A stretch of DNA of 64,000 nucleotides, from positions 164,842-228,841 of the forward strand of contig JAZQJD010000026.1 in NCBI GenBank assembly GCA_045541435.1, in the 5' to 3' direction. Origin of the DNA: Acutalibacteraceae bacterium (GTDB lineage Bacteria; Bacillota; Clostridia; Oscillospirales; Acutalibacteraceae). The stretch's first letter is position 1, and every line of letters starts with the position of its first letter. Position numbers and translations under genes: made by a program. The notes beneath the pieces are model-generated. The model worked only from the letters and a program-made list of their open reading frames with translations. It searched no databases and was not told where the DNA came from. Positions 4,239-64,000 of this stretch are shown here, in pieces.

Positions 4239-4256
4239 ACTGAAAGGGAATCTATT

Positions 4257-30397: not shown

Positions 30398-30496
30398 AAA
30401 ACACCTTACAAAATCATATATAGTCTATTATATTTTATTCTAATTATATCGGTTTGTCAAGGTAACACAATGTATTGAAAAAAAGAAAGCTGTATG

Positions 30497-30700
30497 ATAG
30501 AATAGCTTTGTTATCAGGGGAAACAGGTGAAAATCCTGTACGAGCCCGTCGCCGTGAGGTGCATTATTGTTTTTATTCTACCTGTTGCCGCAAAGCAGGG
30601 ACAAGCCATTGGATTTTTCCGAGAAGGCGAATTAAAACGCACTAAGTCGAAATACCCGTTAACGCTAACTCTTTTAAAGACATTGTCTTGACTGCGAGTG
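30497..30700 (+). ncRNA. Cobalamin (B12) riboswitch
   Basis: GGGAAACAGGTGAAAATCC...GCCCGTCGCCGTGA core, a downstream GCCATTGG...GAGAAGGC segment and an AGTCGAAATACC B12-box-like segment. Located in the 5' leader of a DUF4430/ECF-S operon. Confidence 0.7.
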
Positions 30701-31920: not shown

Positions 31921-32571
31921 TTATACCATTTTTTCTTGTTTGACTTTGTGGTCGATTACGTGTCTTGATTTAAGCTCATTCATTATATCATCAACTGAAA
32001 TACCCATTTCAATCATAAGAACAAGAACATGATACATAAGGTCGGAAATCTCATAAATTGTTTCTGCTTTATCATCTGCTTTACCTGCGATGATAACCTC
32101 AGTACATTCTTCGCCAACCTTTTTGAGAATTTTATCAATCCCCTTTTCAAAAAGGTAGGTTGTATAAGAACCTTCCTTTGGATCAAGCTTTCTGCCCTCA
32201 ATAGTTTCAACAAGGCTCTGAACGCTGAATGCAGGTGATATTTCTTCGTTTTCAAAAACCGTATTGAAGAAGCAGCTTTCCTCGCCTGTGTGACAAGCAG
32301 GACCATCCTTTTTAACTCTTACTGTAAGAGCATCCATATCGCAGTCTGCGGTAATGCTTACAATATGCTGATAGTTTCCGCTTGTTTCACCTTTGAGCCA
32401 AAGCTCCTGCCTTGAACGGCTCCAGAAGCAAGTCCTTTTCTTTTCGAGAGAAATCATAAGGCTTTCCTTATTCATATATGCAAGAGTGAGAACCTCACTT
32501 GTTTCATCATCTACAACTATTGCAGGAATAAGACCTTTTTCATCAAATTTAAGCTTTTCTATATCAAACAT
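31921..32571 (-). CDS. hisIE: Bifunctional phosphoribosyl-AMP cyclohydrolase / phosphoribosyl-ATP pyrophosphatase
   Basis: HisI-like N-terminal half and HisE-like C-terminal half in a 216-aa ORF. Confidence 0.9.
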
Positions 32572-32572
32572 A

Positions 32573-33331
32573 TTATAACCTCACTGTTATGTTATTCTCG
32601 TTAAGAGTTTTCTTTAAATCGTCTATTGTTACTTCGCCATAGTGGAAAATTGATGCCGCAAGACCTGCGCTCACATCGGGAACAGTATTGAACAAATCAA
32701 CAAAATCCTGCTTCCCCCCTGCACCGCCCGATGCAATTACGGGTACATTCACAATATCGCAAACTGCCTTGAGCATTTCGATATCGAAGCCTTTTTTAAC
32801 ACCGTCGGTATCAATAGAGTTTACAACAATTTCACCGGCACCGTTATTCACGCCACGTTTAATCCATTCAAGTGCATCAAGGCCTGTGTTTTCTCTTCCG
32901 CCCTTGGCAAAGACCTTAAACTGTCCGTCAACCCTTTTCACGTCAACTGAAAGAACAACACACTGATCGCCGTATTTTTCAGCTGCTGCATGAATTAAAT
33001 CGGGATTTCTTATAGCACCCGAGTTAACGCTGACTTTATCTGCACCGCATTTTAAAACTCTGTCAAAATCATCGAGAGTATTAATACCGCCGCCAACTGT
33101 TAAAGGTATAAAAACCTTTGAAGCGGTTTGGGTAAGAATATCTGTAAAAAGCTTTCTTCCGTCAGAGGAAGCTGTTATGTCATAGAAAACAAGCTCGTCT
33201 GCTCCGTGAGAGCTGTAATATTCTGCCAACTGAACAGGTGAAGAAATCTCATTTAAATCTTTAAAATTTGTACCTTTAACAACGGTTCCGTTTCTTACAT
33301 CAAGGCATGGAATAATTCTTTTTGTAATCAT
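32573..33331 (-). CDS. hisF: Imidazole glycerol phosphate synthase cyclase subunit
   Basis: RIIPCLDV N-terminus in a 252-aa ORF. Confidence 0.95.
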
Positions 33332-34041
33332 TTTACTGCCTCCAAAGCCTCTCTTATTTTAATTGCGCCTGTGTAATAGGCTTTGCCGATAATTGCTCCG
33401 AAAAGGTTCATTTTATTAAGAGCGATTATATCATCAAGAGTTGAAACTCCGCCCGATGCAATTATATTAACGCTGAACTTTTCCGAAAGCTCTTTATAAA
33501 GCTCTCTGTTAGTACCCTGCATTGCACCGTCCTTGGAAATATCCGTGCAAATAACAGTTGAAACACCGATTTTCTGGAGCTTTTCAAAGAACTCAAATGT
33601 GCCGTATTCGGATTTTTCAACCCAACCTTTAATGGCAACCTTACCGTCTTTTATATCTGCACCAACTGCAATTTTATCACCGTAGGTTGCAACAGCAGTT
33701 TTAAGAAACTCTTCATCAGTTACTGCTGCCGTACCCAAAATAACACGGGTAACTCCTGCATCAAGATAGGCTTTAACGGTTTCCATTGAACGAATACCGC
33801 CACCAACCTCAACATTCAAGGATGTATTTTCAACAAAACTTTTTATTATATCAATATTGGGTGTTCCGCCGTCACGAGCGCCCTCAAGGTCAACTGTGTG
33901 AAGCTCGGTTGCACCTTGACTTTCAAAATCCTTTGCAATTTCAATAGGATTTTCGGAGTAGACTGTTAAATCATTATAGTTACCCTTTAAAAGCCTGACA
34001 GCCTTACCCTCATATAAATCTATTGCGGGAAAAATTTTCAT
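33328..34041 (-). CDS. hisA: ProFAR isomerase
   Basis: IFPAIDL N-terminus in a 237-aa ORF. Confidence 0.9.
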   Translation of the reverse strand: MKIFPAIDLYEGKAVRLLKGNYNDLTVYSENPIEIAKDFESQGATELHTVDLEGARDGGTPNIDIIKSFVENTSLNVEVGGGIRSMETVKAYLDAGVTRVILGTAAVTDEEFLKTAVATYGDKIAVGADIKDGKVAIKGWVEKSEYGTFEFFEKLQKIGVSTVICTDISKDGAMQGTNRELYKELSEKFSVNIIASGGVSTLDDIIALNKMNLFGAIIGKAYYTGAIKIREALEAVK

Positions 34042-34050
34042 TGTATTACC

Positions 34051-34662
34051 TCATATTTCACAGAATGCTTTCAAAATTGAAAGACCTACATCCCCACTCT
34101 TTTCGGGATGGAACTGACAACCAAAAATGTTGCCCTTGCCAACTGCCGCAGTTACAGGAATACCATATTCGGAAGTAGCAATAACGGATTCGTCACAATC
34201 GGTTGCATAATAAGAATGAACAAAATAAACGAAGTCCCCATCATTTATGTATTTGAAAATCGGGCTTTTCTCTCCTACAAAATCAAGAGCATTCCAACCC
34301 ATATGGGGAATGTTAAGGTTTTCGGGAATTTTATTTTCTAAAGGAATCACATTCCCCTTAAGAAAGCCTAAACCCTCATACTCACCATATTCAAAGCCTT
34401 TCTCAAAAAGCAGCTGCATACCAAGGCAAATCCCTAAAAATGGCTTTCCTTTTTCAGCTTCCTCTGTGATAAGCTCAACTAAACCCGATGAACGAAGCTT
34501 TTTAGCCGCATCACCAAATGCACCAACACCGGGAAGAATGATTCTGTCTGCCTCTTTTATTACATTTTCATCACTTGTTACAACTGCTTCAACACCTATT
34601 TTCTTTAATGAGCATTGGAGAGAGAACAAATTACCGACACCATAGTCAATTATTGCAACCAT
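34051..34662 (-). CDS. hisH: Imidazole glycerol phosphate synthase glutamine amidotransferase subunit
   Basis: Class I glutamine amidotransferase motif GICLGMQ. Confidence 0.9.
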   Translation of the reverse strand: MVAIIDYGVGNLFSLQCSLKKIGVEAVVTSDENVIKEADRIILPGVGAFGDAAKKLRSSGLVELITEEAEKGKPFLGICLGMQLLFEKGFEYGEYEGLGFLKGNVIPLENKIPENLNIPHMGWNALDFVGEKSPIFKYINDGDFVYFVHSYYATDCDESVIATSEYGIPVTAAVGKGNIFGCQFHPEKSGDVGLSILKAFCEI

Positions 34663-35249
34663 TATAAAACTCCTTTGGATGAGGGTATCTCATTTTTCAT
34701 TGTTTCGTCAATAGCAACTGCCTTTTTAAGAGTACGGGCAACGGATTTAAATGCACCCTCAATCAAGTGATGAGAGTTAACTCCGTCAAGCTGTTTGATA
34801 TGAAGAGTTATTGCACTATTGAATGCAAATGCCACGAAAAACTCTCTTAAAAGCTCGGTATCAAAATCTCCTACCATTGGTGCAGGAATATTCATATAAT
34901 ACTGAAGATATGCTCTGCCGGAAATATCAACCGCAGAAAGAATGAGAGCTTCATCCATAGGAAGAATTGTGCTTCCGTAGCGATGAATACCTCTTTTATC
35001 GCCTATAGCTTCCTTAAAAGCCTGACCGAGAGCAATTCCGATATCTTCTGTTGTATGGTGTCCGTCAACCCAGATATCACCGCAACATTTAACGGTTAAA
35101 TCAAACCTTGAATGCTTAGCAAAAAGAATAAGCATATGGTCAAAAAAGCCGATACCCGAATCAATATCGCACTGACCTGTTCCGTCAAGGTTAAGCTTTA
35201 CATATATATCTGTTTCTGCAGTTTTTCTTTTAATTTCTGCTATGCGCAT
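34662..35249 (-). CDS. hisB: Imidazoleglycerol-phosphate dehydratase
   Basis: 195-aa IGPD fold with conserved His/Glu residues. Confidence 0.9.
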   Translation of the reverse strand: MRIAEIKRKTAETDIYVKLNLDGTGQCDIDSGIGFFDHMLILFAKHSRFDLTVKCCGDIWVDGHHTTEDIGIALGQAFKEAIGDKRGIHRYGSTILPMDEALILSAVDISGRAYLQYYMNIPAPMVGDFDTELLREFFVAFAFNSAITLHIKQLDGVNSHHLIEGAFKSVARTLKKAVAIDETMKNEIPSSKGVL

Positions 35250-36314
35250 TTAAACTGCCTCCATAATTTCTTTGATTTTTTCAATAAGAATTTGCATTTC
35301 CTCGAGAGTACCGATAGTTATGCGGTTAAAATCCTTAATTCTTTCTTTTGTGAAATGACGAACAAGAACGCCTTTGTCCTTAAGCTTTAAATAAAGCTCT
35401 TCACCATCAATTTTTTCTGACTTTGCAAAAACGAAGTTTGCTTTTGATGGTAACACCTCAAAACCAAGGGCTTCAAGCTCTTTCGTTGTGTAATCTCTTG
35501 TTTCAATAATCTTTTTGCAATTATCTGTATAATAACTCTGAGAATCTATTGCCGCCGCACCTAAAGAAAGAGTAAGGCGGTTTATGTTATAAGGGTTGGT
35601 TGAATAACGAAGCTTGTGCAAATCATTGATAATTTCTTTACTACCGATAGCAAAGCCTAAACGAGCACCCGCCATTGAGCGTGATTTTGAGAATGTTTGA
35701 ACAACTAAAAGGTTATCGTATTTCTTAATAAGATTTACTGCACTTTCTGCACCGAAATCCACATAAGCCTCATCAATTACAACAACATAATCGGGATTTG
35801 ATTTAATAACCTTTTCAATTTCTTCGAGGCTCAGTGCAAGTCCTGTTGGTGCATTGGGGTTTGCAATAAAAACGCCACCGACAACACCGCAGAAATTTTC
35901 GTAATCAATAGAGAAATCCTCTTCCAAGGGAATTTCTGTATAATCAGAGCCGTGAAGATTTGCAAAAACGCTGTAAAAGCCATAGGTTATATCTGCAAAA
36001 TACGACTTTCTGCCGTTGGCACAATATGCCATAAATGCAAAGTTCAGAATATCATCTGAGCCGTTTGCAAGGAAAACATTTTCTGTTTCCACGCCATAAA
36101 GGTCAGCAAGCTTTTTAGTAAGAATTTTACCGTCGGGGTCGGGGTAAAGTCTTAAAAGCTCTGCTTCGCCTTTATTTGCCTGCGCAAGTGTTTCGGGACT
36201 TGGCGGATATGGTGACTCATTAGTATTGAGTTTTATATATTTTTTATCCTGTGGCTGTTCACCGGGAACATAAGCCGCCAGGGAATTATATCTTTCGTCA
36301 AGGAATTTACTCAT
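35250..36314 (-). CDS. hisC: Histidinol-phosphate aminotransferase
   Basis: Start set at MSKFLDERY, where a GGGGGAAGAG RBS lies upstream. The longer ORF in the track runs through the structured intergenic insert. Confidence 0.85.
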   Translation of the reverse strand: MSKFLDERYNSLAAYVPGEQPQDKKYIKLNTNESPYPPSPETLAQANKGEAELLRLYPDPDGKILTKKLADLYGVETENVFLANGSDDILNFAFMAYCANGRKSYFADITYGFYSVFANLHGSDYTEIPLEEDFSIDYENFCGVVGGVFIANPNAPTGLALSLEEIEKVIKSNPDYVVVIDEAYVDFGAESAVNLIKKYDNLLVVQTFSKSRSMAGARLGFAIGSKEIINDLHKLRYSTNPYNINRLTLSLGAAAIDSQSYYTDNCKKIIETRDYTTKELEALGFEVLPSKANFVFAKSEKIDGEELYLKLKDKGVLVRHFTKERIKDFNRITIGTLEEMQILIEKIKEIMEAV

Positions 36315-36332
36315 TGGATTACTCTTCCCCCT

Positions 36333-36607
36333 GGGGTGAGTGAAACCGAACCAAATAAGCCTAAAATGTCCGATTTTACGCACCTTTGTAATTTTTTTGT
36401 CTCGTAATACGCCAGTATTACTTCGCCAAAGGAAATCCCAAATGCACGCAAACTCGGGCATTTTAGGTTCTGCGAAGTTTAATACTTGGCAATTTTTTCT
36501 GTAACAAGGCAAAACTCGCAGGAAGGCTTTCTCCTTTCAAGAGTTTTAACGATGTTACAGGGAAAAGTGACTGTATTAAACCTTGTTTGGTTCAGTTTCA
36601 CTCACCC
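36333..36607. repeat. Inverted-repeat-bounded structured element between hisD and hisC
   Basis: 19-20-bp terminal inverted repeats (GGGGTGAGTGAAACCGAACC at 36333-36352 and GGTTCAGTTTCACTCACCC at 36589-36607). Nested internal inverted repeats are also present. Confidence 0.6.
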
Positions 36608-37865
36608 TTATACTTACACTCTTTGCGTGAGCGTGAAGTCCTTCTTCAGTAGCAAAGCGAACCACTTTATCGCCCACCTCTTTAAGAGCTTCTCTGCTGA
36701 AATATGAAAACTGAGTTTTCTTAACAAAATCATCAACTGAAAGAGGGCTTGAAAATCTTGCAGTACCGCTTGTGGGTAATGTGTGGTTAGGACCTGCAAA
36801 ATAGTCACCGAGAGCCTCGGGACAGTTTTTTCCTAGAAACACAGAGCCTGCATTTTTAACATAACCCAAATATTCAAATGGATTATCAACACAGATTTCA
36901 AGGTGCTCCGGAGCTAAAATATTTGAGGTTTCCATAGCTTCAACAAGAGAATCTGTAATAATAATTTTGCCGTTTGTATCAATGGAGCAACGGGCAATTT
37001 CTGCTCTTGGGAGCAAAGGAATCTGAATTTCAAGCTGTTCGCTTACTTTATTTGCAAATTCTTCGCAATCTGTGATAAGAACTGCGGTTGCCATTTTATC
37101 GTGCTCTGCCTGTGAAAGTAAATCTGCCGCAATATGAGCAGGATTGTTTGTTCCGTCAGCAACAACAAGAATTTCACTTGGTCCTGCAATCATATCAATA
37201 TCAACTGTGCCGAAAACCTGCTTTTTAGCTTCTGCAACAAAAGCGTTACCGGGACCAACAATTTTATCAACCTTGGGCACACTTTCTGTTCCGTATGCAA
37301 GAGCAGCAACTGCCTGAGCACCACCGATTTTGAATATTCTGTCAACCCCTGCGATACTTGCAGCCGCAAGAATTACAGGCTTGATTTTACCTTCTTTTGC
37401 AGGTGTTACCATAACAATTTCAGAGCAACCTGCAATTTTAGCGGGAACGCAGTTCATAAGAACTGATGATGGGTAAGAAGCTGTACCACCGGGAACATAA
37501 AGACCAACCTTTTCAATGGGTAACACCTTCTGACCGATTATAACCCCAGCATTATCGTTTATAACAAAGGAGTTGCGAACCTGCCTTGAATGGAAAGCGG
37601 TAATATTCTCTTTAGCCTGCTTTAAGATTTCGATAAGTTCAGCATCGACTTGATTTAAAGCAGCTTCAATTTCTTCTTTGGTTACTTCAATAACATCATC
37701 AACCGCACCATCGAATTTCTTGCTGTATTCAACAAGAGCTTTATCGCCGTTTTCACGGACATTTTTTATTATATCAGCAACAATACCCTCAACATCAATG
37801 GTCTGCTCGCTTCTTTCAAGAATTTCTTCTGTTGAGATTTCGCTACGCTTGTATATTTTAATCAC
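36576..37865 (-). CDS. hisD: Histidinol dehydrogenase
   Basis: 429-aa ORF with full-length HisD similarity. Confidence 0.95.
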
Positions 37866-39454
37866 TGTTTTTCCCTCACAATTTCGTCTAATGAAGCTTT
37901 AAGTTTATCTATAATTTCAGATTTAAATTTATAGCTTGCTTTGTTTGAAATAAGCCTTGCGCTTATTGCCACAATAGTTTCTTTAGGCTCAAGACCGTTT
38001 TCAAGAAGAGTTGCACCTGTTTCAACAATATCGACAATAACATCGGAAAGGCCAAGAATGGGTGCAATTTCGATGGAGCCGTTAAGCTTTATAATATCAA
38101 TATCACGGCATTTATCTGCATAATAGCTTTTTGCAATATTGGTAAACTTTGTTGCAACTCTCAAGGTGCTTGTGCCGTTATCGGTAAACTCTTTTTTACC
38201 TGCAACACACATTCTGCATTTGCCCATATCCAAATCAAGAAGCTCATAAACATCGGGAGCATATTCAAGAAGAATATCCTTACCTGCAACGCCTATATCT
38301 GCCGCACCACGTTCAACATAAATTGCAACGTCAGAGGGCTTAACCCAGAAATAGCGAACCTTTTTCTCCGCATTTTCAAAGATAAGTCGGCGGTTTTTCT
38401 CGTGAATCTGAGGGCATTCAAACCCTGCACTTTCAAACATAGAATAAACCTTTTCACCCAGTCTTCCTTTAGGAAGAGCCACATTAAGCCAACCGTCGTC
38501 TGCAGTTTCTTCAACTTCTTCCTTATTTTCAAGAAGTCGGTCAACTTCATCAAGATAAACCGCAAAGCCGATTGCACCGGCTTTTTTATTAACTCGTTCC
38601 ATAAGCTTATCATATCTTCCGCCGGAAAGAACACTTGCGGGAACACCGTGAATAAAGCCTTTGAAAGCAATTCCGTTATAATAGTTCATATCATTAACCA
38701 ATGAACAATCAATATTGATATTATCTTCATAGCCTGCACCAATAAGCTTTTCACAAACCTTTGAAAGCTCGTTGAATGCATTCTGCATTTCGGAATTGAC
38801 AGCAACCGCACCGATTTTTTTGAGAACCTCAGAGGGCTTACCGCAGGCATTAACGATTTCGAGAAGCATATTAACAAGTGCTTCACCGATACCAAAGCTT
38901 TCGCAAAGTGTTTTTATAGCACCTGCATTTTTCTCTGCAATAGCAGAAAGTATCTCTGCTTTATTGCTCTCATTGAGCTCCATAGCATTAAAAATACCGC
39001 TTAAAAGACCTAAATGAGAAATATCAAGAACATAATTTTCGCTTATGGCATAAAGACTGCGGGCGGCAAGAATAATAACATCGCAAACATCGTTATCGGT
39101 AATGTCACCCATACATTCAATACCCGTTTGCATAATCTCACTGAAGCCACCTGCTTTTTTACTTTCACGGTAAACATTTTCATTGTAATAAACCTTTTGA
39201 ACTCCTTTAACGGAATCGTCAAGGTTTTTGATAATTGAAAAAGTTACGTCAGGCTTGAGAGCAAGGAGTCTGCCGTCTGTATCGGTAAAGGTAATACAAT
39301 TACCGCTTACAAGGAAGTCCTTGTTACTGCCATATAAATCATATTCCTCAAACTTGCTCATTTTGAAAGGCTTATAACCGAACTTTGTATAAAGAGAACG
39401 AAGCTCGAATATAATTCTTTCGGTGGGATTGAGAACAGAAGCATCAAAACTCAT
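37862..39454 (-). CDS. hisZG: Fused ATP phosphoribosyltransferase: HisZ regulatory subunit (N) plus HisG short form (C)
   Basis: The first ~315 aa are HisRS-paralog-like (HisZ). The last ~210 aa are HisG-short (LNVALPKGRL...). Read as a single uninterrupted ORF. Confidence 0.8.
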   Translation of the reverse strand: MSFDASVLNPTERIIFELRSLYTKFGYKPFKMSKFEEYDLYGSNKDFLVSGNCITFTDTDGRLLALKPDVTFSIIKNLDDSVKGVQKVYYNENVYRESKKAGGFSEIMQTGIECMGDITDNDVCDVIILAARSLYAISENYVLDISHLGLLSGIFNAMELNESNKAEILSAIAEKNAGAIKTLCESFGIGEALVNMLLEIVNACGKPSEVLKKIGAVAVNSEMQNAFNELSKVCEKLIGAGYEDNINIDCSLVNDMNYYNGIAFKGFIHGVPASVLSGGRYDKLMERVNKKAGAIGFAVYLDEVDRLLENKEEVEETADDGWLNVALPKGRLGEKVYSMFESAGFECPQIHEKNRRLIFENAEKKVRYFWVKPSDVAIYVERGAADIGVAGKDILLEYAPDVYELLDLDMGKCRMCVAGKKEFTDNGTSTLRVATKFTNIAKSYYADKCRDIDIIKLNGSIEIAPILGLSDVIVDIVETGATLLENGLEPKETIVAISARLISNKASYKFKSEIIDKLKASLDEIVREKQ

Positions 39455-39747
39455 TTTTCTTCTCCCCCTTTGAGCTTTTCGATTATCTTTTTATAACCAC
39501 CGTTACCATAGGAAAGGCAACGGTTAACCCTGCCGATTGTAGCAGAGCTTGCACCTGTTTCAGCAGTAATAGTTGAAAAGGTTTTACCCTCGTCAAGCTT
39601 CTTGGCAACACTAAGGCGTTGAGAAAGGGAAACAATTTCATTAATGGTGCATAAGTCCTCAAAAAACAAAGCACATTCCTCTTCATTTTCGAGGCTTAAT
39701 ATTGCTCTGTAAAGCTCGGTAACATCATTATTTTTTAAAGGTGTCAT
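39451..39747 (-). CDS. YerC/YecD-family TrpR-like DNA-binding protein (candidate his operon regulator)
   Basis: 98-aa TrpR-like HTH. Overlaps the hisZG start by 4 nt. First gene of the his transcription unit. Confidence 0.8.
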   Translation of the reverse strand: MTPLKNNDVTELYRAILSLENEEECALFFEDLCTINEIVSLSQRLSVAKKLDEGKTFSTITAETGASSATIGRVNRCLSYGNGGYKKIIEKLKGGEEK

Positions 39748-39962
39748 ATCTAAGACCTACGGCATTTTCTTAAAAGAAAAGCCCTTCCTTTCTGAAAAGT
39801 CTCATTTTTAAAAACGTGTTCATATGGTAGCACACTAAAGTGCTAAAGTCAATAGTCAAACACCATTATTTTTTCTGAAATTGAAATTTGTTAAAATGAA
39901 TAAAAACACTTGAAAAAATCAAGGGTTTTATATATAATACTAATTGCATTTTTAATATTTTT

Positions 39963-40038
39963 GCTGGAATAGCTCAGTTGGTAGAGCAGCTCATTCGTAA
40001 TGAGCAGGTCGCGTGTTCGAGTCACGTTTCCAGCTCCA
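39963..40038 (+). tRNA. tRNA-Thr (anticodon CGU)
   Basis: Cloverleaf folds by hand. 7-bp acceptor stem, D and T arms, anticodon loop TTCGTAA, and an encoded CCA. Confidence 0.9.
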
Positions 40039-40068
40039 AAAAAGACAGTCCTCGGACTGTCTTTTTTT
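40039..40068 (+). terminator. Rho-independent terminator after tRNA-Thr
   Basis: GACAGTCC-TCG-GACTGTC hairpin followed by TTTTTTT. Confidence 0.8.
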
Positions 40069-40071
40069 ATC

Positions 40072-40240
40072 CATTGCGAAAGCAATGGTATATCATCACA
40101 CTTTAGTGTGTATATCATCGCCAAAGGCGTATATCATCAACCACAGGTTGCATAATCTTTCGCAATGATGATATACAAAGCGTTGCTTTGGTGATATGCA
40201 ATTTCTGCAAAATTGATGATATACACACCTACGGTGTGAT
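40072..40240. repeat. Iteron-like array of 9-mer TATATCATC boxes, each beside a short hairpin
   Basis: Direct boxes at 40089, 40111 and 40130, with a degenerate fourth at ~40151. Exact inverted boxes GATGATATA at 40167 and 40215, plus a variant GTGATATGC near 40191. Each box abuts a different 4-6-bp-stem hairpin. Confidence 0.6.
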
Positions 40241-40475
40241 TTTTCTTACAAGAACTCAATGCAAGAATCCTGAACGAGCTCATTGAGAAAATTGTGGTAT
40301 CAGAAAAGGAAATTATAGACGGTGAAAAATATCAATGCGTGCATATATACTACAAGTTCGTAGGGTTGATGAGTATATAAAAAGAAGCTGATAAAATCAG
40401 CTCCTTGTTTATAAATTTATATATTGCTTTTATTTCAAAACAAAAAATTGTTTTGCACTTATTTTTTGTATAAAT

Positions 40476-41180
40476 TTAAACTTCTTCTGCTTCGTTCTTT
40501 TCGTTTTCAGCACCAAGAAAATCAATTTCGCCATTTTTATAAGCTTTTATAATTTTATTTAAAAGACTCCTTTTCAAAAAAACACTCTCAACCCAAAATC
40601 TTACAAATCTCCATTTTATGCCTTCTTCAGAAAACATCTTATAACTAGGTCTATTTATCTTTTTGGTAATATGTTTATCTATTCGCTTTTGCCACTTTTG
40701 AATATCTCCAATTAGCATCAAACCTACAAATTCATAGTTTGTTTCTCCAGTTTCATTCATAAATAATAGCAAGCACAATGTATATCTGTTCATAGCATAT
40801 AGATATGCTGATGTTGTTAAATCAAGATACCTTTCATGTTCTTCTCTACAATTTTGTATACCATCTAAAAATTCAATAAAAGTCTCCCTGCTTTCCATAA
40901 TTTCAGGATAATAAATATTATTAGAAAAAGTAGCATCCTCTGGCGTCTCTATATCATCACCAAACGAAAATATATCGATCGCAGCCGCTTTTAATTCCAC
41001 CTTTTTTACTTCTTCATACGCAGAAAAAATTTTTTCTCCCAATTTTTCTCTATAATTGATTTTTGTTTGTTTTTTTATTTTATGTAATTCAGCGATATGT
41101 GTAAGCAAAGCAGTAATTACAATAATTATCACTTTTTCTACTATGTCTTCTGTAAAAAAATCTTTTATAAGTTCAATCAT
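40476..41180 (-). CDS. Hypothetical protein (island cargo, no recognisable domain)
   Basis: 234-aa ORF. Second gene of a two-gene unit between the tRNA-Thr and its duplicated 3' end. Confidence 0.4.
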   Translation of the reverse strand: MIELIKDFFTEDIVEKVIIIVITALLTHIAELHKIKKQTKINYREKLGEKIFSAYEEVKKVELKAAAIDIFSFGDDIETPEDATFSNNIYYPEIMESRETFIEFLDGIQNCREEHERYLDLTTSAYLYAMNRYTLCLLLFMNETGETNYEFVGLMLIGDIQKWQKRIDKHITKKINRPSYKMFSEEGIKWRFVRFWVESVFLKRSLLNKIIKAYKNGEIDFLGAENEKNEAEEV

Positions 41181-41186
41181 ACTTAT

Positions 41187-41801
41187 TCACCTCAACTTAA
41201 CCTTAATTTCCGGACCAAAATTGAGTGGCTCAAAATCATCGTTAACTTCCCACAAATAACTATACAAATACAAGATATGTGTAGCATTGGATGGGTCGGT
41301 TTTGTATTGGCGATAATTAGCACAACTTGTCCAGAATTGTTCTGCAGTAAATCGTTCGGGAAGTGCTGATATAACTCTTGAAAAAGCTTCAACTTGTTCA
41401 TCCGAGAGCTTCATCCATACACTATTAACTGAAGGATTCGGCAAATCAGGTGCACTATCGAATTTCTGTTTAAGTTTTGGATTTTCAGCAAAGACTGTTT
41501 CAATGGATTGAAGGACATCATCTGCAACAAGTTTGCACCATTGTGCATCTACGAACTCACAACCATTGCTTGGTTTCATTTTTGCAGAAAATCCTTTTTT
41601 CAATATAATCCAATCACTAAGATGGTCACCTTTTTTCCATGATATTCCGTTATATGAGTAATCTTCATCTGCATATTTAGGGAAAACACCTACAACTTTC
41701 CAATAGCCTGAACTATATTGGGTAACCCAATCACCAACTTTAAAGGTTGAATATGTGTCATTTGTTTTTTCTTTCTTGTGGAATATATCAAACAAACCCA
41801 T
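41187..41801 (-). CDS. Hypothetical protein (island cargo, no recognisable domain)
   Basis: 204-aa ORF. A 6-nt gap separates it from the downstream ORF. Confidence 0.4.
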   Translation of the reverse strand: MGLFDIFHKKEKTNDTYSTFKVGDWVTQYSSGYWKVVGVFPKYADEDYSYNGISWKKGDHLSDWIILKKGFSAKMKPSNGCEFVDAQWCKLVADDVLQSIETVFAENPKLKQKFDSAPDLPNPSVNSVWMKLSDEQVEAFSRVISALPERFTAEQFWTSCANYRQYKTDPSNATHILYLYSYLWEVNDDFEPLNFGPEIKVKLR

Positions 41802-41896
41802 AAATATGCTCCTTAAAAACTATATTATATGTAGTAATTATATCACATACCATCTAACATTTCCATAGCCAATTAATATATCCTTAACTACAAGCA

Positions 41897-41930
41897 CAGG
41901 TCGCGTGTTCGAGTCCCGTTTCCAGCTACA
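41897..41930 (+). repeat. Duplicated 3' portion of tRNA-Thr (attR-like direct repeat)
   Basis: CAGGTCGCGTGTTCGAGTCcCGTTTCCAGCT matches tRNA positions 40008-40038 at 30 of 31 nt. Followed by the hairpin terminator CCGCACACGAAAGTGTACGGG plus T-run. Confidence 0.75.
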
Positions 41931-42085
41931 AAAATGCCGCACACGAAAGTGTACGGGATTTTTACTTATTCACTAATAATATTGATATTAAAATCTTAAA
42001 TATTTCTTAAGATTCTATCGATTTGTTGTTTTCTGTTCTTTTTACTGCTAAAATTGTGATATAGCAAGCTGAAAGGAGCGGTTTT

Positions 42086-42846: not shown

Positions 42847-43842
42847 TTATTTAATCACTGCATATTTAAAAATCTCTTGAGCTTCTTCTTTGGTAAAGCC
42901 TGCGAGCTTGATTGCGTAAATCTTGCTTAAATCTTCTTTTGACTGGAAATACAAAAGATAGGTTTCAGTATTTTCTTCTGAGAGAATATAATGTCCCTGT
43001 GCCACTGCCCTATTATTTTCGGAAACAATATAATGGGAGTTACCGTTACCCATCGGCAATACTGATATTGCCATACTTGAATAATAGGCGCACGCCTTTG
43101 TATAATTCTCAAATGAACATAAAAGCTTTGCTTCGGGCGGGTCGCTTGAAATAAAATCTTTTAGCATTTTATAATTATAAGGAACTGCAACCTCTGTACT
43201 GTACCCATAATTCTCTATACCCTTTTTAGCAATGGCATAAACTATCGGATATTTTAAAGATTGATTAAAATATTTTTTATGTTCATCCAATGTAGGAATC
43301 GGCACACCTTGATTTTCATCGTAAATAACAATATTTTTACCTTTACCAAAATCAAGAATGTAAGTTCTTTCTATCTTCTTTTCCTTGTATTCACCAATTT
43401 CTGCATCTATATATAAATTAAAGTATTCGTTACTGTAATTACTCCTTGTATTGTCACCACTTTCAAAAACCTGGCAGGTATCCGTAACACCGCTATAGCG
43501 ACCCTTATCAAATTCGATTTTATATAACATCAACGGCACTTTAAGAAACGCAAATACGCCCAACAAAACAAGCACAACTAAAAATACTGATACGGTTTTG
43601 ATTATTGCTTTTTTCTTATCCTTTTTAAACATATTACCAACTCCTTTTATCAATTCTGTTGAATCATTGTTTAAAGCTTTAATTTCGGGTTGATTTGTTA
43701 ACTGCTCATATTCCTTTCTGCAGGATGGGCAAATATCCAAATGATTTTTTATAATTTCCGTTGATTCCTTACTGCAAAGGTCATCTATATACAGAGGCAA
43801 TAAATCCTTTATTAAGGAACAGCTTTCTTTATTCACCTTCAC
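42847..43842 (-). CDS. Anti-sigma factor (zf-HC2 zinc finger, single TM, extracytoplasmic domain)
   Basis: CSLIKDLLPLYIDDLC...HLDICPSCRKEY zinc-finger anti-sigma motif, then a TM and a 230-aa external domain. Overlaps the sigma gene. Confidence 0.65.
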   Translation of the reverse strand: MKVNKESCSLIKDLLPLYIDDLCSKESTEIIKNHLDICPSCRKEYEQLTNQPEIKALNNDSTELIKGVGNMFKKDKKKAIIKTVSVFLVVLVLLGVFAFLKVPLMLYKIEFDKGRYSGVTDTCQVFESGDNTRSNYSNEYFNLYIDAEIGEYKEKKIERTYILDFGKGKNIVIYDENQGVPIPTLDEHKKYFNQSLKYPIVYAIAKKGIENYGYSTEVAVPYNYKMLKDFISSDPPEAKLLCSFENYTKACAYYSSMAISVLPMGNGNSHYIVSENNRAVAQGHYILSEENTETYLLYFQSKEDLSKIYAIKLAGFTKEEAQEIFKYAVIK

Positions 43843-44329
43843 TCATCCTTTCTTCGATTTGTTTTTTTGCTCTGAAATATGTTACTCTCGCCCAGTTTTC
43901 TGTTTTATCGAAAACATCGGCAATAGTGGAATATGGCATATCTCCCAGGATTTTCATATAAAAAACTTCCTTATAGGGAGTTTCCAATTTAACGGCTTCA
44001 GTTAGAATTCTTTTAACATTTTCATTTTTAATTGCATTTTCTTCGGGGGTATTGTCTGCAACTAAATTGGGGTAATCTGAAATACTTTCCGCTTGCTTTT
44101 TCCTTTTGGAATTAAGAAAAATATTTCTTGCAATACTGCAAAGCCAGGTTTCGATTTTGCAGTCGTTTTTAAATGTATCAATCTTTTTAATTGCGTTATA
44201 AAAGGTTTCCTGCGTTATATCTTCCGCCAAAGCTTCATTAAGGCATAAAGACAAGGCATAGCTTTTCACATATTTATAATGCAAATTACACATTTTTTCT
44301 AAATCATCCAAAGCCGTCCCCCCTTTCAT
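43829..44329 (-). CDS. ECF-subfamily sigma-70 factor
   Basis: Sigma region 2 and region 4 motifs in a 166-aa ORF. Translationally coupled to the anti-sigma gene. Confidence 0.75.
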   Translation of the reverse strand: MKGGTALDDLEKMCNLHYKYVKSYALSLCLNEALAEDITQETFYNAIKKIDTFKNDCKIETWLCSIARNIFLNSKRKKQAESISDYPNLVADNTPEENAIKNENVKRILTEAVKLETPYKEVFYMKILGDMPYSTIADVFDKTENWARVTYFRAKKQIEERMSEGE

Positions 44330-44447
44330 TTTTATTTTATATGTAACAAATCCGCTTCAACCTTTTTGATTTTCAACTATTAGAAACATAAAAAGGCATT
44401 TCATTACAAAAATTTTTAAATATTTTTCATTTTTATTGTAACATAAA

Positions 44448-44484
44448 AATCCGCTTAACAGAATATTATCTGCTAAACGGATTT
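44448..44484. repeat. Conserved hairpin family, copy 2 (terminator of the SPFH gene)
   Basis: CCGCTTAACAGA-ATATTA-TCTGCTAAACGG followed by a T-run. Confidence 0.6.
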
Positions 44485-44524
44485 GTTTTTATCATCAACT
44501 AATTATTTATATCCAAATGAATGA

Positions 44525-45916
44525 TTAAAGCTTTTCGCCACATTCAAGGCAGAATTTTGCACCTGTTGGAATTTCTGCACCGCATTTTGCACATTTAATA
44601 ATCAAGGATGCGCCACATTCCATACAGAACTTGCCTTTGGATGTCTTTTTACCACAAACAGGGCAAATCATTTCATTTTCTGCAAGGTTTTCTACCTTTG
44701 CACCACATTCAAGGCAGAATTTTGCATTAGCAGGTAAGGTATTGCCACATTTAGCGCATTTAATACTGCTTTCTGGAGTCTGGACGCTACCTGCAAAACC
44801 ATTGAAAACCTCACCTAACTGACCGCTCATTGCACCTGCTGCCTGAAGACCAACACCTAAGCCGACGATATCGCCCATCATACTGCCACCGGCACCATCG
44901 CCCCCCATATTGCCAAGACCTTCTGCAAATGCTTTCTGAACATCCGCCTGAACATATTCTTTTTCAGTAATACCTTTAGCAGCCATAATTTCAGCTTCTG
45001 CAAAGCCTGCCATTTTTGCTGCCTGTGCTTCTGTTTGCGCTTTAATAAGCTCACGCTCTGCTTCGCGTTTAGCGACCTCTGTTTCGGTTGTCTGTCGCTC
45101 AAGCTCAATCTGTCTCTGAGCTGCAGTAACCTCCGCCTCCGCCTCTGCTTTTGCAGTTCGGATTTCAGTTTCTGCCTCAACCATTCTCTTCTGGAATGAA
45201 ATTGTATGTAATTCTCGAATTTTCTTGAAGTTGAGGTCATCTTCGGGCAAAACAATTGTTGTCACATAAAGCTGAGGAATTGTTAAACCATATTCTTCAA
45301 AGCCGGGTATAAGTTCTTCTTTAAGAACTCCTGAAAGGTCTTCAAGTCTCTCATCTATTTCAAGAATATCTATTTCCCCCTGCTTGATAGCGATTGGAAG
45401 ATTCGCTTTAACTGCAGTTGAAATGAAAGGTCTGAAGCAGTCGTTAAGACTCTTTGTAAAGCCTTCCCTGCTATCGCCCCAGGCAATGCCGTTTGCAGTA
45501 CCAACAAGCTTTATAAGAAGCTTACGGGAATCGGAAACCTGAAGATTCATTTCACCGCTGGCACCTAACTCAAGGGGAACACCTGTAAGAGAATCAATAA
45601 AACGAACCTTACTGTCTGTGCCCCATTTAACAGACATCTGAACAGTTTTGTTAATGAAATAAACTTCGCAATGGAAAGGTGATTCCCCACCTGTTGCAAG
45701 GTTAAGAAGATTGCTGAGTAAGGGAATATTCTGTGTGGTGAGAGTATATCTTCCGGGTCCGAAAGAATCAAGTGCCTGACCGTTTTTAAAGAAAATTGCC
45801 TCCTGACTTTCGTGAACAATCAACTGTGAAAGAATATTAAAATCCTCTGCAGGATGCTTCCAGATAAATGTACTGTTATCGCCTTCATATTTAATAACAT
45901 CTATAATCTTTGCCAT
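44525..45916 (-). CDS. SPFH/band-7 (PF13421-like) protein with a coiled coil and three C-terminal zinc ribbons
   Basis: SPFH-like N-terminal domain, an Ala/Glu-rich coiled coil, and three CxxC...CxxCG ribbons (CAKCGNTL..FCLECG, CPVCGKK..FCMECG, CAKCGAEI..FCLECG). Confidence 0.65.
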   Translation of the reverse strand: MAKIIDVIKYEGDNSTFIWKHPAEDFNILSQLIVHESQEAIFFKNGQALDSFGPGRYTLTTQNIPLLSNLLNLATGGESPFHCEVYFINKTVQMSVKWGTDSKVRFIDSLTGVPLELGASGEMNLQVSDSRKLLIKLVGTANGIAWGDSREGFTKSLNDCFRPFISTAVKANLPIAIKQGEIDILEIDERLEDLSGVLKEELIPGFEEYGLTIPQLYVTTIVLPEDDLNFKKIRELHTISFQKRMVEAETEIRTAKAEAEAEVTAAQRQIELERQTTETEVAKREAERELIKAQTEAQAAKMAGFAEAEIMAAKGITEKEYVQADVQKAFAEGLGNMGGDGAGGSMMGDIVGLGVGLQAAGAMSGQLGEVFNGFAGSVQTPESSIKCAKCGNTLPANAKFCLECGAKVENLAENEMICPVCGKKTSKGKFCMECGASLIIKCAKCGAEIPTGAKFCLECGEKL

Positions 45917-45952
45917 ATTAAAGACCTCCTATTAATTTATGTCAATATATTT

Positions 45953-47689
45953 TTAATTAATTTTACTAACCAAAGCCCACAAAACTAGAATTAAGGAAAG
46001 AACCGCTACACCAATTAAAATTTTGGAGTAATGTTTTTTGTTTTTGTTATTATTCTTTCGTTCTTCTTCGGCTTTTTGGCGTTCAATACGCTCTTCCTCA
46101 GCCTTGTGTTCTCGCGCTATTCTGTCTGCTTGTTCCTTTGCTTTGATTTCTTCGATTCTTTTCTTACAAGCAATGATTTTTTCATCAGCATCTTTCCAAC
46201 CGGGAATTTCTTCAAGAAGCGCAATGGCGTTCACATACTTTGCGGTATTTGAGCCGGTCATATTCGCCTCAGCCTCAGAAAGAATTGTATCCTTTCTTGC
46301 AATCTCACCTTTTTCAAAGCATTCCTGAGATTTTTCCTTTGCATCGGCATAGTCCATAACCTCAATGAACATATATCCTGCATTTTCAAACATCTGCTCA
46401 GTTGTAGCACTTTCCATTATTTCAAGGGCGTTTTCATATAAATCCTTTTTACGAGCATCATCTAAACGCCTTGCAATAATTTTATTGCAGTTTTTAACTT
46501 TTTCTTTCAATTCGCTATCAGCAAACCGCATTATTTTTTCATAATTTTTATTATCGCTGAACGTTGTATAAAAGCTACTAAGATTTTCAAATTTTGAGAT
46601 TTCCAAATCAGCAAAAAGTTTACCTAAATATGCACTTGCGTTTTTAGGGTCTTGATTAAGTACAGCTTCAAAAAATTCATCCGCATTATCCCAATCCTGA
46701 TCTTCAAGAAAATGAAAGCCTCTCTCCAAAAGTGGTGCAACATCAACATTATCGTTATTCAAAACAATTTTTTCTTTTGAGGCTTTAACACGGGTTTTAT
46801 CAATAATGTGCTCGATACTTTCCATAAGGCTTCCGAAGAAAGTCACATCACCCATATCAAGAGCCTGCATATTTTTAAACTCTTTAGGAATGTCGTAGGC
46901 ATCCATATTCTTATAGCAAGGTATAAGCACCTTAGAAGAATTGTCGCCCATCATTGATATAAAACGAGACCACTCGTTTTTAACCCATACTGCATTGTAA
47001 TAATCGTGCTTTGTACCTATGGCAAGCATAATTTTTGCACTTGAAAGAGCCGCATAAATATATGGTTCATATTCCGTACCGGCAATCTCACGAAGAGAAG
47101 CTCTTGAAAAGAAAACTCGGTAACCGGCTCTCAAAAGCTCGGTATAAATATCCTGAGCTATAAGGCTATCCTCAGTTCGTGAACCGGTAATATCATCAAT
47201 TTCTTTATAACAAATGAAAATATCATAAGGTTCTTCATTTAAGGCTATATCAAGTATTTTCTTTTGAATTTTATCAATTGCTTTGGCTTCGTCACGGTAG
47301 ATGTTTTTTGCAGTTATATCAGCATACTCGCAAGCCTGCTGAAAATCATCATCTTCCATAATGGCAACAGGCAAGGTACGATGGCAGGTAGGAACCTTAC
47401 TTCCATTTCCGTCATCTACATATTCAATACCATACTTGCAAAGCACCAGCCCCCAATAGGCTTCAGCTTCATCACGAAATTCTGCAATAATACTTTCATA
47501 TATTCCGGCAGCTTTATCAAATTCACTTTTTATGCGAAGGTTATTGGCGCGAGAAAAAAGCGCAAGCTTTTTCTCATCATCCAATTTTGGCAGAGTCTGC
47601 TGTGTGCCACAATATTCGCAAGTGGCAACAGATTGATTATCCGAAATCTCCAACGCTCCCCCGCACATTTTACATTTAAAAATTGCCAT
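45953..47689 (-). CDS. Zinc-ribbon plus TIR-domain protein with TPR-like/coiled-coil regions and a C-terminal TM anchor
   Basis: N-terminal CKMCG...CEYCG ribbon. TIR motifs DIFICYKEID and WVKNEW (putative catalytic Glu). C-terminal coiled coil plus hydrophobic tail ILIGVAVLSLILVLWALV. Confidence 0.65.
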   Translation of the reverse strand: MAIFKCKMCGGALEISDNQSVATCEYCGTQQTLPKLDDEKKLALFSRANNLRIKSEFDKAAGIYESIIAEFRDEAEAYWGLVLCKYGIEYVDDGNGSKVPTCHRTLPVAIMEDDDFQQACEYADITAKNIYRDEAKAIDKIQKKILDIALNEEPYDIFICYKEIDDITGSRTEDSLIAQDIYTELLRAGYRVFFSRASLREIAGTEYEPYIYAALSSAKIMLAIGTKHDYYNAVWVKNEWSRFISMMGDNSSKVLIPCYKNMDAYDIPKEFKNMQALDMGDVTFFGSLMESIEHIIDKTRVKASKEKIVLNNDNVDVAPLLERGFHFLEDQDWDNADEFFEAVLNQDPKNASAYLGKLFADLEISKFENLSSFYTTFSDNKNYEKIMRFADSELKEKVKNCNKIIARRLDDARKKDLYENALEIMESATTEQMFENAGYMFIEVMDYADAKEKSQECFEKGEIARKDTILSEAEANMTGSNTAKYVNAIALLEEIPGWKDADEKIIACKKRIEEIKAKEQADRIAREHKAEEERIERQKAEEERKNNNKNKKHYSKILIGVAVLSLILVLWALVSKIN

Positions 47690-63765: not shown

Positions 63766-64000
63766 CAAACGAAATGGTCAAGCCCTCGACCTATTAGTAC
63801 TGCTTAGCTGAACACGTCACCGTGCTTACACACGCAGCCTATCAACCTCATAGTCCATAAGGGGTCTTACTAACTTAAGTTATGGGAAATCTAATCTTGG
63901 AGATGGCTTCACGCTTAGATGCTTTCAGCGTTTATCCAATCCGCACATAGCTACTCGGCCGTGCCACTGGCGTGACAACCGATGCACCAGCGGTGCGTCC
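63766..64000 (-). rRNA. rrl: 23S rRNA, 3' end (partial, runs off the window)
   Basis: The reverse complement contains the conserved domain-VI sequence GGATAAACGCTGAAAGCATCTAAGCGTGAAGCC and the GTACTAATAGGTCGAGGGCTTGACC 3' terminus. Confidence 0.85.

Follow-up and report, generated by a model that had tools for sequence, protein, structure and literature searches.

The closest known relative of the array described here is, by its sequence and layout, the Gut-1 RNA motif (RF01706). Gut-1 was described by Weinberg et al. in 2010, rated 'RNA? Y' without a function being given, and has since stood in Rfam as an orphan 'RNA' from uncultivated gut bacteria that lacks a context (PMC2864571). A literature search by box sequence, Gut-1 names and tRNA-downstream repeats returned nothing relevant and found no later work on Gut-1. 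We analysed 64,000 nucleotides of an Acutalibacteraceae genome (contig JAZQJD010000026.1, positions 164,842 to 228,841; hereafter the window), in which a tRNA-Thr gene is followed by an array of short boxes, first direct and then inverted, that alternate with small hairpins. Gut-1 is the sole Rfam family to match it (40085-40160 on the minus strand, full model, 23.2 bits, E = 0.015). This score lies below the Gut-1 gathering score of 50 bits, and none of 19 related loci gave a Gut-1 match at gathering score. The array apparently forms the conserved, non-coding heart of a small mobile module that measures about 200-260 bp when it carries no cargo and sits flush to the CCA ends of tRNA and transfer-messenger RNA (tmRNA) genes. 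As to how it acts, we tentatively favour a cis-acting, strand-symmetric platform of DNA hairpins and boxes, a reading that we place slightly short of an even chance.

The window array contains five exact copies and one variant copy of the box TATATCATC or its inverse GATGATATA within 135 bp (Table 1). All five exact boxes listed in a first-pass annotation of the sequence were recovered, and the variant that it reported is GGTGATATG. Its additional degenerate box, CATAATC at about 40151, belongs to the variable centre spacer and is not a conserved box; in relatives this spacer opens with a truncated box only (G-YAT). The true conserved unit in the window is an 11-mer, G-TATATCATC-A/G. The shuffling check proposed in that annotation gave a clear result: the 64-kb window holds 8 exact copies of the 9-mer against 0.57 +/- 0.76 expected, and 0 of 100 shuffles reached 8, which rules out a chance cluster as the explanation of the array. 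Start-to-start distances between boxes are 22 and 19 in the proximal half, and 23 and 25 in the distal half.

Each box is parted from the next by a short hairpin, with seven hairpins in all. The five palindromes named earlier are present, and two more, CAAAGCGTTGCTTTG and CAATTTCTGCAAAATTG, had been overlooked. The same is true of an 11-bp inverted repeat, A/A* (40072-40082 / 40157-40167), which brackets the first half of the array, and of a recombinase remnant that abuts its end. Segment A can pair with the centre segment A* as an alternative to closing hairpin 1. In a computed fold of the first half as single-stranded DNA, an 11-bp closing helix is followed by three hairpins (z = -5.5), and A:A* pairing is thus predicted to shut the proximal half into a cloverleaf-like domain. 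Folding z-scores of the array are -7.4 and -6.4. No similarity to phages or plasmids was found by blastn with positions 40060-40400.

Table 1. Features of the tRNA-Thr locus and of the DNA inserted there (window coordinates).
Feature	Position	Strand	Remarks
tRNA-Thr (anticodon CGT)	39963..40038	+	ARAGORN; Rfam tRNA 68.8 bits
Bidirectional intrinsic terminator (A-run, 8-bp G+C stem, T-run)	40038..40067	.	Perfect 14-nt inverted repeat I2
Hairpin 1, CCATTGC-GAAA-GCAATGG	40071..40088	+	5' arm and loop form segment A (40072-40082)
Segment A, CATTGCGAAAG	40072-40082	+	5' arm plus loop of hairpin 1; half of inverted repeat I12
Box TATATCATC, exact, 3 copies	40089, 40111, 40130	+	Proximal half, 40089..40138
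Hairpin CACACTTTAGTGTG	40097-40110	+	Between proximal boxes
Hairpin CGCCAAAGGCG	40119-40129	+	Between proximal boxes
Hairpin 4, CAACCACAGGTTG, then variable centre spacer CATAAT	40138..40156	+	Hairpin at 40138-40150
Segment A*, CTTTCGCAATG	40157-40167	+	11/11 complementary to 40072-40082 (I12)
Inverted box GATGATATA, exact, 2 copies	40167, 40215	+	Distal half, 40167..40238
Hairpin CAAAGCGTTGCTTTG	40176-40190	+	Distal half
Variant inverted box GGTGATATG	40190-40198	+	Distal half
Hairpin CAATTTCTGCAAAATTG	40199-40215	+	Distal half
Hairpin CACACCTACGGTGTG	40224-40238	+	Last of distal half
Large serine recombinase, C-terminal remnant, 46 codons	40247..40380	+	Pfam DUF4368, E = 2e-14
Two cargo open reading frames (234 and 204 aa), function unassigned	40476..41801	-	Within insert
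Insert right end: motif CCTTAACTACAAG, tRNA-Thr 3' copy, decayed terminator	41884..41965	+	

We searched species-representative genomes with a strict pattern, which yielded at least 120 loci, and metagenomes with a second, different signature, which also yielded at least 120. The box clusters that the first-pass annotation proposed to look for in relatives are therefore numerous, with at least 240 related arrays in gut Clostridia genomes and metagenomes (loci numbered with the prefix L below). Among the matches listed, the hosts are nearly all metagenome-assembled genomes (MAGs) of uncultivated gut or rumen Clostridia, assigned to Acutalibacteraceae, Oscillospiraceae, 'Eubacteriales' and Christensenellaceae. 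A loose two-box pattern applied to viral contigs matched mostly coding tandem repeats, the only true relatives being L058, L072 and L075. The non-redundant set comprises 167 arrays. The commonest layout has three boxes and three inverted boxes (95 of the 167 arrays), 3+2 and 2+3 are also common, and the distance from the first box to the last has a median of 145 bp.

All of these arrays follow one plan. A tRNA CCA end is succeeded by an A-run, a G+C hairpin, a T-run, ATCC and hairpin 1. Two or three boxes, typically three, then alternate with hairpins and lead to a short, variable and often A-rich centre, after which comes a segment that can pair with the 5' arm and loop of hairpin 1. The 3' part consists of two or three inverted boxes alternating with hairpins, a last hairpin and ATT. 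The A-run, terminator and T-run lie directly upstream in 81 of 81 oriented arrays. In the window the module starts at the first base 3' of the tRNA-Thr CCA end, and the array starts 4 nt after the T-run, directly downstream of the terminator as had been noted before. The terminator is preceded by a tRNA CCA end or, in most other loci, by a tRNA-like 3' fragment ending in CCA. In two sets, 47 and 50 arrays, or roughly one in two, are found 51-63 bp downstream of an intact tRNA, with at least 25 anticodons represented, and one array follows a tmRNA. At a few loci a short conserved sequence directly before the A-run replaces the tRNA end, either CTGTAAACAC (L114, L121, L129, L185) or GTTCAAACTACCC (L124, L145); these may be other attachment sequences.

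The number of units is altered by tandem duplication, as seen from the 11 proximal units of L157 (19-386) and the six distal units of L165 (2083-2285). Several MAGs carry at least two arrays, and some 8-kb blocks contain two.

The resemblance to Gut-1 extends beyond the Rfam match. Both have at least three short hairpins with covarying stems and a conserved linker of 7-9 nt between them, although the 9-nt linker of the window array, with its seven hairpins, differs from GUGAAAU. Both have uncultivated gut bacteria as hosts, and Gut-1 arrays likewise follow the terminator of a tRNA or gene. When Gut-1 seed sequences are viewed with their flanks (BAAZ01025322, BAAZ01000095), a tRNA-Arg is followed by a terminator and an opening hairpin; GTGATAT boxes and their hairpins then lead to a centre that is complementary to the start, and ATATCAC boxes lie beyond it. 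The array family has the same context: a terminator, a start that pairs with the centre, and inverted boxes beyond. The Rfam Gut-1 model covers three hairpins of one half only; the Gut-1 three-hairpin motif is half of a larger mirrored element. The box cores are alike when read on the strand with G..A loops (ATATCA(T)C here, ATATCAC/ATTTCAC in Gut-1), whereas the boxes as such differ (TATATCATC/GATGATATA against GUGAAAU/GUGAUAU). Relative to the terminator, the units of Gut-1-type arrays point the opposite way, though these arrays too retain the proximal A:A* closure.

Gut-1-type and TATATCATC-type arrays co-occur in the L083 and L142 contigs. In L083 (1-480, minus strand), the tmRNA gene ssrA is followed by a terminator, a TATATCATC-type array, a decayed tRNA-like fragment, a second terminator and a Gut-1-type array with ATGAAAT/ATTTCAT boxes. 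Judging from this order, it looks like the successive occupation of one site by two array types. L142 (1-260) carries an all-direct hairpin array with ATGATATC/GATGATATA boxes, then the conserved CGCTACGCGTATGTCGGTGTG; it scores 50.7 bits with the Gut-1 model, represents one more variant of the architecture and is cut by the contig end.

Throughout the family the boxes are kept as sequence and the hairpins as structure: 520 hairpins have 107 stem sequences, and 88% of the stems are perfect. The palindromes vary in sequence yet stay paired, which points to a nucleic-acid structure and not to a sequence-specific dimer site. Pairing of A with A* reaches at least 10/11 in 140 of the 167 arrays, with 41 distinct 11-mers, and the mode is 6-7/11 when A* of one locus is set against A of another. 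The A:A* pairing therefore covaries. Box spacing was measured in 152 arrays and varies continuously from 19 to 31 bp (mode 23). There is consequently no helical phasing.

The hairpins are also polarised. On the tRNA strand, proximal-half loops are of the G..A type in 133 cases and of the T..C type in 7, whereas distal-half loops are T..C in 194 cases and G..A in none, that is, G..A on the other strand. The G..A loops (GAA, GCA, GTA, GTCA, GTTA) are mostly closed by C-G. The unit formed by a C-G..A-G hairpin and TATATCATC therefore lies on the top strand in the proximal half and on the bottom strand in the distal half. Stem mismatches on the 'sense' strand are G:T in 30 cases and A:C in 9 (24 against 15 under a one-strand assumption), these mismatch and loop counts being drawn from related, non-independent sequences. 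G:T accounts for just 0.7% of 3297 pairs. This scarcity, like the mirrored polarity, fits DNA hairpins better than one transcript. A minimum-energy long rod, in which left boxes pair with right boxes, was also considered and rejected: box variants on the left and right are uncompensated (e.g. 3/93), so this low-energy rod is not conserved.

These data bear directly on whether the array is instead a structured non-coding RNA, a divergent member of Gut-1, which we regard as rather unlikely. Such an RNA could be a read-through trailer of the tRNA operon on the plus strand or a minus-strand RNA ending at the shared terminator; the hairpins and A:A* would then be structures of the transcript, whose 9-nt linkers would serve as a sponge or scaffold for a protein or for another RNA. 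The single Rfam match, the plan shared with the Gut-1 seeds and their rating as RNA all agree with it, as do the covariation of stems and A:A* and the folding z-scores of -7.4 and -6.4. The constant coupling to a terminator that is functional on the minus strand would also be natural for a small RNA gene. Against this, there is no conserved promoter on either side of the arrays, and on the plus strand the terminator lies just ahead of the array. No promoter was found next to the window array on either strand, and a leftward promoter-like site occurs in only 1 of 74 right flanks. Apart from the scarcity of G:U-type pairs, the loops are of the C-GNA-G type and not GNRA or UUCG. The opposite unit polarity of Gut-1-type arrays relative to the terminator and the unconserved rod also speak against an RNA, and a boundary flush with CCA on more than 25 tRNAs resembles an insertion, not an ordinary gene. 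Finally, the polarity of loops and mismatches switches from one half to the other, and any one transcript therefore holds some of the units in the opposite sense.

Evidence for a mobile module comes from near-identical copies at different tRNA genes. Over 200-230 nt, copies of the unit of terminator and array that follow unrelated tRNAs are 90-97% identical; for example, after the CCA, Gln-CTG and Met-CAT loci share 97% and Thr-GGT and Leu-CAG loci 94%. In 16 such pairs the acceptor arms match no better than tRNA background, whereas identity is 0.99 from the first nucleotide after CCA. L258 (Gln) and L304 (Met) have 1.06 kb in common at 98.4% from the CCA onward, and then diverge. Since similarity starts right after CCA on unrelated tRNAs, the unit behaves as a mobile module. 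The same terminator sequences recur 3' of unrelated tRNAs, and the identity from the first base after CCA means that the terminator travels with the array and is part of the module, not of the tRNA locus. Simple insertion after CCA with the native terminator retained was rejected: a second, native terminator behind the arrays is not enriched (7/128 against 7/128 in a control window), and the terminator of the unit thus replaces the native one.

At some loci the inserted DNA is bounded by direct repeats of the tRNA 3' end. Such inserts measure 1.86 kb in the window, 1.3 kb in L087, 0.8 kb in L143, 2.6 kb in L258 and 0.26 kb in L080, the last being hardly larger than the unit. L058, L083 and L131 carry units in tandem. 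In a comparison with miniature inverted-repeat transposable elements, the flanks TTTAT and ATTT were found to belong to the mirror symmetry (ATC/GAT), and the tRNA-end repeats are of variable length, 22-37 nt.

The 1.86-kb window insert comprises the terminator, the array, the recombinase remnant and two open reading frames (ORFs). The last 35 nt of tRNA-Thr are repeated at 41897-41931 with three mismatches and are followed by the decayed terminator. This copy is the displaced original tRNA-Thr end and is attR-like, and the window array forms the tRNA-proximal end of a decayed insert in tRNA-Thr, in keeping with the boundary position proposed for it earlier. The suggestion that the element has decayed and retains neither rep nor integrase also stands: among the 51 ORFs of the window there is no recombinase or rep gene, and only the 46-aa serine recombinase remnant is left. 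The two cargo ORFs have no Pfam match and no PADLOC defence-system match.

The remnant is joined straight to the end of the array and is 92.5% identical to the 3' end of an intact 543-aa gene in the relative L131. L131 has the same joint between array and remnant as the window, with the intact serine recombinase just upstream (3064-4695). The family comprises large serine recombinases of about 540 aa, with thousands of homologues at about 75% identity. Their carriers are mobilisable elements encoding an HTH_36 protein, a PF03432 relaxase, an 80-aa ORF and the recombinase (e.g. L320 1075-13600). These elements integrate in tRNA-Thr, where the end motif CC(C/T)TTAAMTACAAC adjoins the displaced tRNA fragment; the window form of this motif, CCTTAACTACAAG, also adjoins tRNA-Thr fragments in L131, L319 and L320. 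L320 is an intact member of this element in tRNA-Thr(CGT), and it has a plain terminator without array. The array is thus not, as a rule, the left end of the serine recombinase element, an assignment that we rejected, and the joint in the window is secondary.

The location beside a tRNA 3' end also recalls the attachment site (attP) of lambda-like phages, in which boxes stand in direct and inverted sets near the core. We consider it quite unlikely that the boxes are duplex binding sites, either arm-type sites for a tyrosine integrase or operators for the repressor of a distal-end promoter, with the palindromes serving as spacers or bending elements. The likeness lies in the boxes of 9-11 bp, whose direct and inverted sets stand no more than about 200 bp from a tRNA-3' core, in the attP-like size of unit plus core (the L080 insert being the smallest), and, at some loci only (the window, L080, L087, L143 and L258), in the tRNA-end direct repeats that flank the insert. 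An outward promoter, in which the last hairpin supplies the -35 (TTGATT) together with an extended -10, is moreover present in about a quarter of the loci; it is absent from most loci and from the window. A lambda-like attP, however, has arm sites to the left and right of its core, and its element encodes a matching tyrosine integrase. Here all boxes lie on one side: in L087 and L143 the sequence ahead of the downstream copy of the tRNA fragment is free of boxes, and that of the window has just two weak box-like 6-mers. No cognate tyrosine integrase was found, with a single Phage_integrase match among 158 neighbouring ORFs. The unphased spacing, the near-identical units on unrelated tRNAs and the ability of the serine recombinase family to integrate at tRNA-Thr without any array (L320) are further differences, and duplex sites leave the covarying hairpins, the long-range A:A* pairing and the loop polarity unexplained. 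The classical arm-type sites considered in the first-pass annotation are therefore not borne out.

In other respects the family resembles the repetitive extragenic palindromes (REP), their mosaic clusters (BIME; REPIN) and the pneumococcal BOX elements. These are also multicopy, extragenic and modular, with palindromes in inverted clusters, a variable number of units, a position near terminators and no gene of their own. We see a slim chance that the array is a host-domesticated repeat of this kind, spread by a REP-associated HUH transposase or by gene conversion, that persists behind heavily transcribed tRNA operons, where it insulates transcription, protects 3' ends or binds a nucleoid or topoisomerase protein. 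The downstream neighbours, which are often ordinary chromosomal genes, and the replacement of the native terminator by that of the unit would be in line with this. The conservation pattern is the reverse of that in REP, however, where the stem and a 5' tetranucleotide are conserved and copies are dispersed: here the stems vary, even within one array, and the linker is conserved. The arrays are limited to tRNA and tmRNA ends and tRNA fragments and are not spread genome-wide, and in at least five loci they are clearly inside inserted DNA. No gene resembling a REP-associated tyrosine transposase (RAYT) was seen in the 8-kb blocks around the arrays.

The mirrored box sets could finally suggest a replication origin, with iterons beside a melting centre or paired single-strand initiation (ssi) signals, or a switch that inverts between A and A*. 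We regard both as very improbable. Mirrored hairpin sets on opposite strands resemble paired ssi sites; as in iterons and in ssiA/ssiB of RSF1010, short boxes stand in both orientations around a centre with hairpins on opposite strands, and here the direct and inverted repeats flank a short, often A-rich centre. In contrast to these systems, the box sets are mirrored and unphased, there are many units per strand instead of one, and the loci are chromosomal tRNA ends. No cognate rep or initiator gene or other origin feature lies nearby, and neither the 51 window ORFs nor the 158 ORFs beside related arrays include a rep, helicase or primase gene. The unphased spacing, the paired palindromes of variable sequence and the absence of a consistent rep, integrase or regulator neighbour thus argue against the iterons or dimer operators that had been proposed. 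As for a switch, the 11-bp inverted repeats A/A* do flank the proximal segment, but a flipped signature of equal specificity gave 0 matches in metagenome contigs against at least 120 for the normal state, and the flipped state is absent from all related loci examined. Inversion is thereby largely refuted.

We return to the DNA platform. Four features speak for a DNA element that acts in cis while single-stranded or extruded: the units keep strictly to tRNA ends, begin at a sharp boundary, are highly identical on unrelated tRNAs and have mirrored polarity. The boxes of 9-11 nt would be sequence-specific contacts, likely for a protein, and the hairpins, mostly C-G closed with G..A loops, would form on the single-stranded or extruded strand. 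Because the halves are mirror images, each DNA strand offers the same units of hairpin and TATATCATC 5' of the centre. The module may be moved or maintained by a protein encoded elsewhere, such as a recombinase, a transposase or an accessory factor, that acts on this platform. The terminator of the module would replace the one displaced from the tRNA gene, and insertion would thereby be harmless to the tRNA. A bolder proposal, which we hold to be possible but doubtful, is that Gut-1 and the present array are the cores of an unrecognised class of non-autonomous mobile elements that home to the exact 3' end of any tRNA or tmRNA gene that encodes CCA and bring their own terminator. They would be read on single-stranded DNA through units of minihairpin and box on both strands, by a type of enzyme with no previous link to tRNA targeting, such as an HUH-type nuclease, or by tRNA-primed copying. 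In that view, the U-tail of a terminated minus-strand transcript would have its counterpart in the A-run that always follows CCA.

Several observations weigh against the DNA platform and the mobility ascribed to it, in addition to the non-independence of the mismatch and loop counts. Stems as short as 4-7 bp would not be stable when extruded from a duplex, and the model has to assume a single-stranded state. Gut-1 was classed by its discoverers as certainly an RNA (PMC2864571), and the strong tRNA promoter could drive read-through transcription into the array. No trans-acting protein was found; Pfam scans of the 158 neighbouring ORFs (110 downstream and 48 upstream) gave a heterogeneous picture, and the neighbours include housekeeping genes such as LigA and LeuA. 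A tRNA 3' direct repeat is detectable in 5 of 70 tRNA-adjacent arrays and not in the other 65. No empty site was recovered, and mobility is therefore deduced from sequence identity. Exact-protein look-ups for strain-level presence or absence led to contigs ending before the tRNA or to proteins not on record. The model also does not account for the fact that a single unit adjoins more than 25 different acceptor stems although a few inserts carry tRNA repeats of 22-37 nt.

Taken as a larger mirrored element with a strict address at tRNA and tmRNA 3' ends, its own bidirectional terminator, a modular build and apparent mobility across many Oscillospirales species, and with polarity rules that make a single transcript an awkward explanation, the array shifts the question from the role of an RNA to the machinery that places or reads such arrays at tRNA ends. 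If the module is indeed mobile, it would represent a new way of colonising tRNA loci, the main landing pads of genomic islands in the gut microbiome. The arrays are also expected to hamper short-read assembly at tRNA loci, and they can pass for iterons or att arms.

We clustered 542 ORFs from the neighbourhoods of the arrays, which revealed no conserved neighbour gene. The largest family is a 114-aa four-helix-bundle protein, present in 10 of 81 loci and the commonest first gene after the arrays. It lies directly after the array (L087, L094, L119, L121, L122, L129 and others) and appears to resemble the 23S rRNA intervening-sequence protein family. Many of these loci have a promoter-like site before the gene, and in several the -35 (TTGATT) is inside the last hairpin. 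At many loci, ordinary genes (LigA, LeuA, transporters) occur within about 1 kb after the array.

Elsewhere in the window, upstream of the tRNA-Thr, a TrpR/YerC-like protein of 98 aa (39451-39747, minus strand) heads a histidine-biosynthesis cluster (31924-39454, minus strand) with fused hisZ/hisG-like, hisD-, hisC- and hisB-like and His_biosynth-family ORFs. The YerC-like gene diverges from the tRNA-Thr promoter, TTGAAA-17-TATAAT (39910-39938). A cobalamin riboswitch aptamer was located at 30480-30673 (plus strand, 48.8 bits). Beyond the insert, the region 42847-47689 (minus strand) encodes an extracytoplasmic function (ECF)-type sigma factor and a zf-HC2 anti-sigma factor, together with a 578-aa TIR-domain/TPR protein and an SPFH-domain protein that bears several zinc ribbons. 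Its content is island-like in look and gave 0 PADLOC matches. At its far end the window stops within a 23S rRNA gene, of which it holds the 3' end (63774-64000, minus strand).

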